Source: a virus
Lineage: Duplodnaviria; Caudoviricetes
Length of the DNA stretch: 64,000 nucleotides
IMG/VR virus record: IMGVR_UViG_3300031555_004524
Coordinates: 1 to 64,000 of that record
Direction: 5' to 3' (one strand)
Made by a program: the position numbers and the translations under genes. Shown piece after piece: positions 26,099-29,399 of this stretch; within the stretch, counting starts at the first letter, position 1, and every line of letters starts with the position of its first letter. Under the pieces are notes generated by a model. The model saw nothing but the letters and a program-made list of their open reading frames with translations, was not told where the DNA came from and made no database searches.

Positions 26099-26136
26099 AA
26101 TTTAACATACAGATAAACCATTGATGGGATGATTTT

Positions 26137-27276
26137 ATGGTTTATCATCTATTTTGGAATTTTATAGAAAGGAGGATAATTATTGGTATGCGTATAAAAA
26201 ATAATTCAAATCACGAAGAAAAAAGAAACAAATTGTGCAATATATGGCGACATAGAAGTCATCGTAATAAGTTGATTTTTGCAAAGACTCTATGTATCGC
26301 AGTAGCAATTTGTGTTATAGCATTAACATTCGTCTACATGCAAACCATTAATGAGATAAATACTTCTATGCATGACACAATCTCTATTCTTAAAGAAGAA
26401 AGATTTAATCAAATATATTTATATGCGATGGAATTAAGAAAAATGGCTTCAGATCAAGCCGAAGAAGTTGCTGTAAGCATAGAACAAGATATCAAATCCA
26501 ATATTGATATGGAACAATTAAAAATTGATCTGGATAGTAATCAAACGAATGAAGATTTACATATGGTATTCAGAAAAAATATTGCTAATGTCGGATTTAA
26601 TGGAATTGGAAATCAACGAGATGGTATATTTATAACTTCTATGGATGGTATATTGGAAGATATGAATCACTATAGAGCTAGTTCCAGTGTAACAGATAAA
26701 CGAGATTGGGAATATGAAATTGGACATGCGTATAATTCTTATTTGGAAAAAGAAGCAGTTAGAAAATTAACTAACCATTCCAAAGAAATTATTATAACAG
26801 AGCACGTTAATAGACTTACACAAGACGATTCCAATTATGAATCACATAAACTGATAAATAGTGCTAGTTATGACACTCTTAAATCAGTTTATATGGAAGA
26901 AGGAATCAATGGATTAAAGAACTATCAGTTTTTAAATCCAGCATATATTCTTGATACTGAAGATATTTTTGGGCAACCACAAATTATCGAAGGGTTAAAA
27001 CAAGAAACCCACACATTTATAGTAGTACAGGAATTTAATTTATATGATCAGATTAAAACTCATTATCCTAAATTAATGGATGATTCGTTTATAAAATCTG
27101 TGGAATTATACTATCACAATGTTTTAAATATTCTATACATTGTTGGGATTTTTTATGGAGTAATATTAGTAGTATTGCTAGCATTTGTATCCAATAAATA
27201 TAATAGATATTTTGATAAACATGATCTTGGTAATATTCCACCAAAAAATAATCATAATATGAAAATAAATGAATAA
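26137..27276 (+). CDS. Two-TM membrane protein with a large extracytoplasmic (Cache-like) domain
   Basis: TM segments near residues 47-67 and 329-351; AGGAGG suggests the true start is ~26188. Confidence 0.7.
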   Translation: MVYHLFWNFIERRIIIGMRIKNNSNHEEKRNKLCNIWRHRSHRNKLIFAKTLCIAVAICVIALTFVYMQTINEINTSMHDTISILKEERFNQIYLYAMELRKMASDQAEEVAVSIEQDIKSNIDMEQLKIDLDSNQTNEDLHMVFRKNIANVGFNGIGNQRDGIFITSMDGILEDMNHYRASSSVTDKRDWEYEIGHAYNSYLEKEAVRKLTNHSKEIIITEHVNRLTQDDSNYESHKLINSASYDTLKSVYMEEGINGLKNYQFLNPAYILDTEDIFGQPQIIEGLKQETHTFIVVQEFNLYDQIKTHYPKLMDDSFIKSVELYYHNVLNILYIVGIFYGVILVVLLAFVSNKYNRYFDKHDLGNIPPKNNHNMKINE

Positions 27277-27751
27277 TTACGGTATAAGGGGGAAAGATAG
27301 TATGGATGTAATATCACTTAATATACTACTGGAATACTTATACAAGCGATTTGTGGTGACATTTTTACTATGCTTAGTTGGAGCATTCATTAAAGAATCT
27401 ACTGTTACTGGTAAGATAAGTTTTACGAAAATATTATCATCTACTATATTTTCCTCTGTTCTTATTTGCGTATTAATGGATTACGTTGAAGTTCCATTCA
27501 GTTTATTCGCTGCAATCACTATATTAGTTGGTATGTGGAGTTCGTCATTAATTAAACTATTCTTGAACCTCAAATTTATACAGTCTCTCGGAAAGACTTT
27601 AATCAAAAACATTTCAGGTCCAGCAGCTAAAGTATTAGAAAGAATGGCTGAGGAAGCTGAAAATATTGAAGAGAAATTGGAAAGAGAGGCTAAAAGAAAT
27701 GCCGAGAAGGAAAAAGAAGAAAAAGAGAAGGATGATGACTCCTTAAAATAA
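27269..27751 (+). CDS. Three-TM membrane protein with charged C-terminus (holin-like)
   Basis: Hydrophobic segments followed by an E/K-rich tail; overlaps the upstream stop. Confidence 0.6.
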   Translation: MNNYGIRGKDSMDVISLNILLEYLYKRFVVTFLLCLVGAFIKESTVTGKISFTKILSSTIFSSVLICVLMDYVEVPFSLFAAITILVGMWSSSLIKLFLNLKFIQSLGKTLIKNISGPAAKVLERMAEEAENIEEKLEREAKRNAEKEKEEKEKDDDSLK

Positions 27752-27755
27752 ATAA

Positions 27756-27985
27756 GAGAGAGTGCTTACTTAAGCACTCTCTCAAAAAATGACAAAAAAA
27801 TAATTTGAATTATTTCTTTGACAATGTGATATGGGGGTGATAATTATTATTCTATTTGGGGTGGGATGTAATAATATTATAATAATTCAAATTGGAGTAT
27901 GAAATGAGTCACAACTCACCCCCATATCTTTTTGTCTGCAAAATAAAAAAGGAGAAACGCGATGAAAGATACTCGCTATTTCATA
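27756..27985 (-). ncRNA. Candidate ~230-nt structured early small RNA
   Basis: TATATTAT-N5-TGA promoter at 27976-28005; long interleaved inverted repeats; terminator at 27756-27783 with minus-strand U-tract; no ORF. Confidence 0.55.
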
Positions 27986-28005
27986 TTAATAATATATAAT
28001 TGAAA
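27976..28005 (-). promoter_or_regulatory. Early-type promoter TATATTAT-N5-TGA
   Basis: 27/30 identical to 41273-41302; same core at 41088, 47201 and 49415. Confidence 0.65.
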
Positions 28006-28012
28006 TTTAAAA

Positions 28013-29224
28013 TTAATACATAGTGTTCATTGTCATATAATTTTCTGGACTCATTGAAGCTAATGCATTATAATCTACAAATAAACCATACATCTTTCTT
28101 GAATATATAGGTTTCTTAATCATTTCATCTCTGAGCTTATCATATTTATCATATAACTTTTCCCAACGTTTTCTTTCAAAATCAGATAACTCTTCACTAC
28201 AGAGATAATCTTCAATAATTCCAATTCTACTATTAATCTGTCTCATAAGCAAAATTGCAGATGATTCATCGTCAATATTTTTAACTCTCATAGAATATTC
28301 ATACACATCGTCTTCTAATGATTTCATTCCATTGAGTTTAATATTTGTAAATAAACTCTTCTTTTTAGATTCTTCAATATAATTTATTTTATAATCTAAA
28401 GTTGTTAAAAATGTCAATGCTTGTTTAATAGCTCTTTTCATTAAAAGAGATCCAGTACAATATAATCCCTGTCTAAGAGTATATACTGGCAAAGTATCAT
28501 ATGCAGTATGATGTAAGAACCAATATAAACACCAGTTTAATGAAGTTGTAGGAAGTAATTCATTATCAAACTGAGGTCTTACTTTCTGCATTTTATCTAT
28601 AGCACTATCAAAATGAGACTCCAATCCCAAATATCTTACAAGTTCTCCAGCAAGAATTAATTTAGTGCTATCTTTTGCACAGCAAGAAAACATTCTATAC
28701 ATTGTTTCTTTTGTAGCATAAGAAAATAAACAATCTAACTCTTTTGTCATGTTATTATGTAAACCTTTTTTATCAATATCTAATCCACAACATATTGCAT
28801 CTACTGCTTCTTTATATTCTCTTACACTAGATCCACTTGTAAGTTTATCGATATCATCAATAATTAATGATAATGCTTCATATACATTAAGATCTGCAAT
28901 TGAATCAAATAATTTACTATCTAATTCCAATCTATAATTCGCAATGTGGAATGGTTCTGGTAATTCACCGCAATCGTATAGTATTCTTTCTACACCATTA
29001 ATCATTGGATCTACCATAATGCCAAAGAATTCAGTATCAGTATTTTTTGTAAATATAACTTCAACACACTTAATATCATCAAAGAACTGATTGAGTGCTT
29101 TCATAAATTCAAATGTGCCGTCTGAGCATTTTCCCATATGGCTAAATGTATGTGCAGAGGAACTTTTACTGAGTATAACTGATAAAGAGTCCAGTAAAGC
29201 TCCTAAATCTTTATTTCTGATCAT
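28013..29224 (-). CDS. Virion head-associated protein (AR9-like)
   Basis: Downstream of the capsid gene, own late promoter (29263-29274), YIEE|SK-type cleavage site before a basic C-terminal domain. Confidence 0.6.
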   Translation of the reverse strand: MIRNKDLGALLDSLSVILSKSSSAHTFSHMGKCSDGTFEFMKALNQFFDDIKCVEVIFTKNTDTEFFGIMVDPMINGVERILYDCGELPEPFHIANYRLELDSKLFDSIADLNVYEALSLIIDDIDKLTSGSSVREYKEAVDAICCGLDIDKKGLHNNMTKELDCLFSYATKETMYRMFSCCAKDSTKLILAGELVRYLGLESHFDSAIDKMQKVRPQFDNELLPTTSLNWCLYWFLHHTAYDTLPVYTLRQGLYCTGSLLMKRAIKQALTFLTTLDYKINYIEESKKKSLFTNIKLNGMKSLEDDVYEYSMRVKNIDDESSAILLMRQINSRIGIIEDYLCSEELSDFERKRWEKLYDKYDKLRDEMIKKPIYSRKMYGLFVDYNALASMSPENYMTMNTMY

Positions 29225-29288
29225 TATATTAAAACTCCTTTCAACTAGTTTTACTATTCATTTATATGTATGTTTTCCTATTAAGCTA

Positions 29289-29326
29289 CGAAATACCCAG
29301 AGTACCTTTCGATACTCTGAGTTTCG
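29289..29326 (-). terminator. Capsid-gene terminator
   Basis: Stem whose one non-Watson-Crick pair is a G.U on the minus strand (a C-A mismatch on the plus strand). Confidence 0.75.
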
Positions 29327-29399
29327 GGAGGTTGTAAAAATTATGAAACTAAACCAAACCTGTTCAAGATTGCAATTTTAGCACTTGTAGCAGCTTAGA

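Follow-up and report, generated by a model that had tools for sequence, protein, structure and literature searches.

The Question Raised by the Locus

What does an early promoter do when it points into DNA that has no open reading frame (ORF) on its strand? The question arises in a 261-nt gap between two convergent genes, here called B and C, of an uncultured jumbo phage of ~248 kb. The window analyzed is the whole stretch of DNA made up of the first 64 kb of a 248,149-bp IMG/VR virus record, with a GC content of ~30%. Its genes include collagen-like tail fibres and a large capsid protein that is ~20-21% identical to those of Staphylococcus jumbo phages and of Yersinia phage phiR1-37. The phage encodes a family B DNA polymerase and a phage-type multisubunit RNA polymerase (RNAP) beta-like subunit (phrog_3015, E 1.6e-44). 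The element that occupies the gap contains a promoter match, a terminator, an insert, and repeats, and its minus strand carries no ORF.

Gene B (27269-27751, plus strand, 160 aa) closes the late-type A-B pair, and its stop codon lies 4 nt ahead of a terminator hairpin. Gene C (28013-29224, minus strand, 403 aa) is a late gene downstream of the capsid gene; it is uncharacterized, and none of its 188 homologues is annotated. Late-type AACA-N6-TA motifs, the mark of late promoters in phage AR9 (PMC5312081), are found at 26104 on the plus strand for the A-B unit and at 29274 on the minus strand for gene C. A scan of both strands found no such motif inside the B-C gap. Between the capsid gene and gene C (29289-29399, minus strand), a CAT-N11-CCTCC string, the complement of a Shine-Dalgarno (SD) sequence plus ATG, directly precedes a hairpin, and the late-type motif of gene C at 29274 follows that hairpin. 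A replication origin at the element was considered and rejected, because the GC skew, examined for a turn at this position, has none there.

An Insert in Front of a Conserved Terminator

The boundary between genes B and C is marked by an intrinsic terminator (27745-27783, minus strand). A 12-13-bp GAGAG...CUCUC hairpin at 27756-27783, with a 4-nt loop, precedes the run UUAUUUAUUUU, or TTATTTATTT as called on the minus strand. It is the sole terminator called in 27000-28800, and none is called between the gene C stop (28013) and 27783. The hairpin is common to the two convergent genes, and the terminator is that of gene C. Because gene C has no other terminator, the element should be carried in the late gene C mRNA as its 3' untranslated region (UTR).

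Four relatives (L004 and L010-L012) have a hairpin at the same position, lying at approximately 5572-5597 in L004, 4227-4256 in L010, 3525-3553 in L011, and 3224-3252 in L012. Its GAGAG/CTCTC ends are invariant, and the changes in its interior are compensatory. The hairpin persists across phages that share only 39-54% protein identity: L010-L012 are the closest available relatives, with gene C 53-54% identical, and L004 is more distant, with gene A at 39%. The stem, the short loop, the U-run, and the retention in relatives all identify an intrinsic terminator.

The spacing around this hairpin differs from that in the relatives. Genes B and C are 37-48 nt apart in the four nearest relatives examined, a gap that is the hairpin itself, versus 261 nt here. 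Given the short gap in the relatives, 27784-28012 can be recognized as an insert of 229 bp that separates the gene C stop from the terminator, and by the sequence comparisons it is confined to this phage lineage. Three short, independent metagenome contigs from other samples have an identical insert in the same orientation. The phage is present in JGI samples 3300024269, 3300024270, 3300018494, and 3300029705 and in ENA ERZ27248314. On the plus-strand side, the hairpin is followed by AAAAAAA and no U-run, in contrast to the U-rich runs on both sides in relatives; the insert has replaced the gene B-side U-run by an A-run in this phage. In a fifth relative (L005/L006), the corresponding site is filled by 190 nt of unrelated sequence. 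This filler (L005 5554-5744, identical in L006, a distant and GC-richer relative) includes two GC-rich hairpins and an AGGAGG-N9-ATG signal with a 21-codon ORF on the A-B strand, and has no detectable similarity to the insert.

Searches for homologues of the insert return its promoter and little else. Megablast and blastn against 50,697 phage records give no homologue beyond the promoter part, an exact-pattern scan of IMG/VR gives none, and blastn-short finds no match to the insert in the syntenic loci of the five relatives. A pattern scan of metagenome contigs yields a single match (L013), which is an unrelated, long palindromic sequence at the end of a contig. In two related genomes, BLAST matches the promoter part only. 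The initial annotation had suggested an Infernal search of jumbo phages; the covariance model R1 finds no match in the same two related genomes, and neither the conservation nor the covariation of a small RNA (sRNA) is seen, the relatives being without the insert and the three other copies being identical. All Rfam 15 scores are below the gathering threshold, with tsr26 (26.7 versus 141 bits) and BTnc231 (25.5 versus 80.4 bits) as the best, and these two scores stem from the terminator and the AU content. ARAGORN detects no tRNA or tmRNA in the element.

A Consensus Early Promoter

The insert carries a promoter of the early phage type (27982-28003, minus strand) in which the core TATATTAT at 27996-27989 is followed by 6 nt and a G(+1) at 27982. 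The AR9 early promoter consensus is AAATATATATTAT-(6N)-G(+1), a motif that was mapped by dRNA-seq and primer extension and ascribed to the injected virion RNA polymerase; dRNA-seq confirmed 33 of 34 predicted AR9 early promoters (PMC5312081). The minus strand from 28001 to 27982 reads AATTATATATTAT-TAATAT-G, which matches 12 of the 13 AR9 consensus positions with exact spacing.

The TATATTAT-N6-G motif has 58 copies genome-wide, and 36 are intergenic versus 1.8 +/- 1.4 expected in the 10% of the genome that counts as intergenic. Most of the intergenic copies have, 26-110 nt downstream on the same strand, a gene that carries a strong SD; the gene of the RNAP beta-like subunit is among these. 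The extended consensus, the intergenic enrichment toward genes, and the phage's own multisubunit RNAP are sequence features of an AR9/phiKZ-type early promoter. By blastn, the promoter part alone matches related genomes as well as Listeria and Staphylococcus jumbo phages. No SD-led ORF is present on the minus strand of the element, and the initial annotation was thus right to describe an early promoter directed into ORF-less DNA, one that proves to be a consensus copy of a genome-wide motif of AR9 form. A host-type promoter on the plus strand, with TTGACA at 27818-27823, was rejected for its poor -10 (AATTAT at 18 nt); host-type matches are about as common as in shuffles (16 versus 12.8).

The element promoter has a 20-nt exact match to the copy at 41279 (41284-41303), with ~88% identity over 34 nt. 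This sister early promoter (minus strand, 41110-41310, +1 at 41279) reads into ~95-115 nt without an SD-led ORF. The sister unit ends at a GGAGGUAUAC...GUGUACCUCC hairpin and is followed by a second early promoter (+1 at 41089) that serves the gene at 40303-41052. The 41110-41310 window has the lowest fold z-score (-9.3) of the genome's long intergenic windows.

Other early-type promoters precede arrays with a 36-nt period (ATATAGTTA-N9-AATGAATTA-N9, minus strand) at genome positions 105100-105400, 107250-107900, and 129360-129680. The extended upstream box ATTTCA is common to the promoter of the 129-kb array and those at 27982 and 41279. A TIGR-Tas guide array at the element was rejected, as the 36-nt ATATAGTTA/AATGAATTA periodicity is missing from it. 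Targeting of the element by a TIGR guide was likewise rejected: 30 spacers give 11 one-mismatch matches versus 6.3 +/- 3.2 in random windows, and no exact match.

Inverted Repeats and the Predicted Fold

The insert contains two long-range repeats. The initial annotation reported two perfect 13-bp pairings and one of 8 bp, in interleaved order, and all of these are exact. Segment A (27802-27814, minus strand, AATTTGAATTATT) is the perfect 13-bp complement of A' (27881-27893), which lies 66 nt away, and B (27828-27840, GATATGGGGGTGA) is the perfect 13-bp complement of B' (27916-27928), 75 nt away, so that the order is A-B-A'-B'. The 8-bp pairing joins 27791-27798 to 27929-27936. An alternative local hairpin over A, claimed in the same annotation, is also present, with 27790-27805 facing 27808-27823 and 14 of 16 positions paired. 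In addition, 3 of the genome's 14 copies of GGGGTG, counted on both strands, are clustered within 100 nt at the element.

Chance is a poor explanation for the repeats. When 27784-28012 is shuffled 2000 times with its dinucleotides preserved, 0.6% of the shuffles contain one perfect inverted repeat of at least 13 bp and 0% contain two. The genome has 27 perfect intergenic inverted repeats of at least 13 bp, of which 25 are hairpins with loops of 3-10 nt; A/A' and B/B' are the sole long-range ones. The statistical oddity of A/A' suggests that something selects for it. That A resembles the TIGR repeat probably reflects chance, because TGAATTAT occurs 64 times in the genome, near the composition-based estimate of ~48, and an iteron-like reading of A was rejected on the same count.

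Transcription from the early promoter would yield a predicted non-coding RNA of ~236 nt (27745-27982, minus strand), whose sequence is also 3' UTR of late gene C. Counted through the last base of the U-run, the unit spans 238 nt from +1 (27982 to 27745), and the 3' end is expected near 27747. The nested minimum free energy of the minus strand is -67.1 kcal/mol. Its fold z-score of -7.6 ranks second among 138 long intergenic windows, compared with -4.8 for the plus strand (separate calculations give -7.6 and -6.0), and the first rank belongs to the unit behind the sister promoter at 41279, likewise on the promoter strand. Structure is predicted on both strands because the repeats are inverted repeats in DNA, and the z-scores differ because a G.U pair on one strand corresponds to an A-C mismatch on its complement. 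The local AU hairpin, for example, is better on the minus strand by virtue of one G.U pair. The strand difference offers modest support for the minus strand being the one that folds.

The fold is predicted to have five parts: a 5' hairpin, a free CUCCUUUUUU, a B'-B helix, an AU hairpin with A, and the terminator. The 5' hairpin (27954-27982, minus strand) comprises nt 1-29 from +1, and its loop contains part of the sequence complementary to the plus-strand ATG region. Next to it, the pyrimidine tract UUUCUCCUUUUUUAU (27943-27957, minus strand), the complement of the plus-strand AAGGAG, is predicted to be largely unpaired, and the free tract UCCUUUUUUA has predicted unpaired probabilities of 0.9-1.0 over nt 30-39. 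In the main helix, B' contributes the 5' arm, with an SD-like GAUAUGGGGGUGA on the RNA, and B contributes the 3' arm, with an anti-SD-like UCACCCCCAUAUC. The SD-like GGGGGUGA would thus be paired to the anti-SD-like UCACCCCC, and the pair probability of the helix is 0.96. The helix encloses a small hairpin and an AU hairpin cap (27842-27856/27873-27887, inverted repeat I5). The 16-nt, C-rich apical loop of this cap, AUUACAUCCCACCCCA (27857-27872, minus strand), is predicted to be unpaired with a probability of 1.0 throughout and would leave its CCCACCCC exposed. A' is divided between the multiloop and the base of this AU hairpin, inside helix B'-B. A is at the tip of the local AU hairpin (27790-27823, minus strand, nt 160-193, inverted repeats I2 and I6), of which 27791-27798 could alternatively pair with 27929-27936.

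Pairing of A with A' would create a pseudoknot because it crosses B'-B, and the initial annotation proposed such a structure. With connecting loops of 22, 40, and 13 nt, coexistence of both helices is sterically possible. Each of A and A' is occupied by a local hairpin, however, and keeping both free costs 9.5 kcal/mol (-57.6 versus -67.1). The all-AU A-A' duplex is worth -9.4 kcal/mol before the pseudoknot penalty, and forcing A-A' in a nested model gives -53.8. Because freeing A and A' costs 9.5 and the duplex returns 9.4 before any penalty, the nested state is favoured and the two states are close. With the usual penalty, the 13-bp AU helix does not recover the 9.5 kcal/mol, and the pseudoknot is accordingly possible and not favoured. 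In these models, the least costly use of the A/A' complementarity is predicted to be a ~7-bp loop-to-single-strand contact. A-A' pairing may represent an optional tertiary contact or an alternative state.

A Possible Pair of Overlapping 3' Ends

An alternative that dispenses with any role in trans is that the element consists of overlapping 3' ends, serving as a two-terminator spacer or as a cis-antisense zone. A-B transcripts would end at B-B' followed by UUUUU (27929-27933), and gene C transcripts would end at 27756; in the cis-antisense variant, the early minus-strand RNA and a 3' extension of the A-B transcript would form double-stranded RNA. The late-type motifs of both A-B and C are consistent with two such converging transcripts, as is TTTTTGT, which follows B' on the plus strand only. 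The A-run behind the conserved hairpin, where relatives are U-rich on both sides, also fits a displaced end for A-B. A terminator at B-B', however, would have a 75-nt 'loop' and would be unique beside the 25 perfect hairpins with short loops. Overlapping 3' ends also leave the consensus early promoter and the A/A' repeat unexplained, and the fold is better on the minus strand. Taken together, this alternative is unlikely.

Anti-SD Motifs or Plus-strand Ribosome Sites

The initial annotation recognized in the 5' part of the RNA the exact complement of an SD plus AUG. This match is real: 27940-27967, when reverse-complemented, gives the U/C-rich string quoted there, and the plus strand has AAGGAG-N7-ATG. 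Its further description of an exposed anti-SD survives in part, as the CUCCUUUUUU tract is predicted to be unpaired, but the same sequence is equally readable as true plus-strand ribosome sites. Both CUCCUUUUUU and CCCACCCC are predicted to be unpaired, and their generic complementarity to SD sequences is indistinguishable from that of a real plus-strand ribosome-binding site (RBS). The minus-strand RNA can be read as having several anti-RBS motifs and one internal SD mimic, and the plus strand as having ribosome sites.

The plus-strand sites head two short ORFs, one of 31 codons (27904-27999, GGAG-N6-ATG) and the other of 13 codons (27962-28003, AAGGAG-N7-ATG). All intergenic DNA of the genome contains 11 orphan SD-ATG signals with ORFs of <40 codons, and 2 of the 11 are here, which makes them unlikely to be accidents; we estimate the chance expectation in 230 nt at ~0.03 per strand. 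Strong SDs of this phage include AGGAGG and GGGGTG, with AAAGGAGA as a typical RBS, and the plus strand at the tract has 12-15-nt identities to several real RBSs of the genome.

These signals raise the possibility that micro-proteins of 31 aa (from 27904) and 13 aa (from 27962) are made from plus-strand read-through of A-B, with the minus-strand RNA acting as an antisense regulator or being incidental. Both signals match the spacing and flanks of the genome's real RBSs, and the phage has other likely genes of 20-38 codons. The RNA reading is nevertheless favoured because the plus strand has neither an early nor a late promoter motif, because no plus-strand terminator follows the mini-ORFs, whose ends are 10-14 nt short of the gene C stop, and because the two overlap out of frame. 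It is also favoured because B' and its U5 are inside the longer ORF, whose product has no tblastn match in the 50,697 phage records. Neither peptide is membrane-toxin-like. Synthesis of micro-proteins is thus quite unlikely to account for the element. A type I toxin-antitoxin system was rejected as well, since neither ORF gives a small hydrophobic membrane peptide: residues of the 31-aa product are mainly charged or polar, and the second ORF is only 13 codons long.

A specific target was sought among the phage's own start regions. A scan for RNA-mRNA duplexes against all of them was discarded as uninformative because it allowed huge loops. The sole extended specific match is that of the 13-mer TATGGGGGTGATA (27830-27842), which recurs exactly in the RBS of a gene that starts at genome 101613, with a composition expectation of 0.003; it uses B, which is buried in the main helix. 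Neither a specific target nor the host factor suggested in the initial annotation finds support here. At this locus (genome 101613-101631, minus strand; locus L018 714-732), the gene encodes ~85 aa, is uncharacterized, and has the unusual SD GGGGGTGAT. Its RBS reads UAUGGGGGUGAUA...AUG and matches the B arm at 17 of 18 positions when the TTAT just downstream is counted. GGGGTG is the SD of four phage genes, this one and three others.

A DNA-level element or relic is very unlikely. On this view the insert would hold operator-like boxes to which a protein binds (three G-rich TGGGG(G)TG boxes and the A/A' pair), a small segment that inverts, or decaying recombined gene starts including the promoter. 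The B arms do extend to GACAA-N4-GATATGGGGGTGA on both strands, further G-rich boxes are found at 27855-27863 (the third) and in the RBS of the gene at 101613 (the fourth), and the insert has no homologue, but two perfect 13-bp long-range repeats are unexpected in decaying DNA, the A-B-A'-B' order is impossible from one inverted duplication, the three independent contigs share one orientation with no sign of inversion, and no recombinase or regulator gene is adjacent among the neighbours.

A Proposed Early RNA

The preferred explanation is that the element is a probable early non-coding RNA, made by the virion polymerase and regulating translation, an explanation that we regard, taken whole, as evenly balanced between right and wrong. 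Its parts differ in strength, and we infer the accumulation, timing, fold, and targets of the RNA. The insert would bring an AR9-type consensus early promoter that is read by the virion RNA polymerase. A minus-strand transcript starting at G 27982 and ending at the pre-existing terminator would produce the ~236-nt RNA early in infection, and in late infection gene C transcripts would carry the same sequence as their 3' UTR. Production of a discrete RNA seems reasonably likely. That the element functions as RNA is a more tentative proposal, which falls somewhat short of probable.

How such an RNA might act is more speculative. The exposed pyrimidine-rich segments may pair with purine-rich RBSs, on mRNAs of the phage or of its host, and so reduce their translation, while helix B'-B would lock the RNA intramolecularly; this mode of action is doubtful. 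A more elaborate mechanism is an early riboregulator in which the SD-mimic/anti-SD helix and the A-A' pseudoknot switch between closed and open states. The open state would mask G-rich RBSs (that at 101613 and those of host mRNAs) or titrate 30S subunits, and the RNA would be one of a set of anti-RBS RNAs that reprogram translation. As a complete scheme, this is improbable.

If the preferred explanation is true, the locus offers a concrete system in which RNA-level control of translation at the onset of jumbo-phage infection can be tested. The insertion would also illustrate how such a unit arises, by placement of a promoter and ~200 nt before an existing terminator.

Comparison with Known Systems

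MicL and DapZ of enterobacteria are sRNAs embedded in mRNA 3' ends that have their own promoter. Similarly, the RNA predicted here is directly downstream of a same-strand gene, with which it has a common terminator, and has a separate promoter. In this case, however, the promoter is past the stop codon and in a recent insert, its temporal class and RNA polymerase differ from those of the parent gene, and the RNA is predicted only.

In RsaE/RoxS-type sRNAs of Firmicutes, C-rich loops pair with G-rich SD sequences. The candidate RNA likewise has C-runs (CCCACCCC, CACCCCC, and CUCC) in an otherwise AU-rich sequence, one of them in an apical loop and another in single-stranded sequence. It differs in having no sequence or Rfam match, in locking one C-run to an internal SD mimic, and in being phage-encoded and lineage-specific.

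Phages have antisense and anti-RBS RNAs of their own, exemplified by lambda OOP and the c4 RNA of P1/P7. Like OOP, the candidate would be a short phage transcript that converges on a neighbouring operon, although its overlap with gene B is limited to the last few codons. The parallel with c4 is the presence of two short complementary segments in interleaved order, including an RBS-like site, as in c4 a'/b' and a2/b2. In the element, unlike c4, both partners of each pair are within the same predicted RNA.

To our knowledge, none of the jumbo phages with their own RNA polymerases, although they receive intensive study, has a validated regulatory small RNA. The dRNA-seq study of phiKZ predicted a single sRNA, of 75 nt, but failed to confirm it (PMC8244752). 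The closest comparison for the transcription unit is with the early units of AR9. The promoter grammar is the same, an AT-rich ...TATATATTAT, 6 nt, and G(+1), and this phage too has a multisubunit RNAP beta-like subunit and late-type AACA-N6-TA motifs, although its capsid is only ~20% identical to those of known jumbo phages. AR9 early promoters were reported to precede protein genes (PMC5312081), whereas the promoter at 27982 precedes 236 nt that are ORF-less on its strand. The candidate RNA would be new and lineage-specific, but its kind, the phage-encoded small RNA, is already known.
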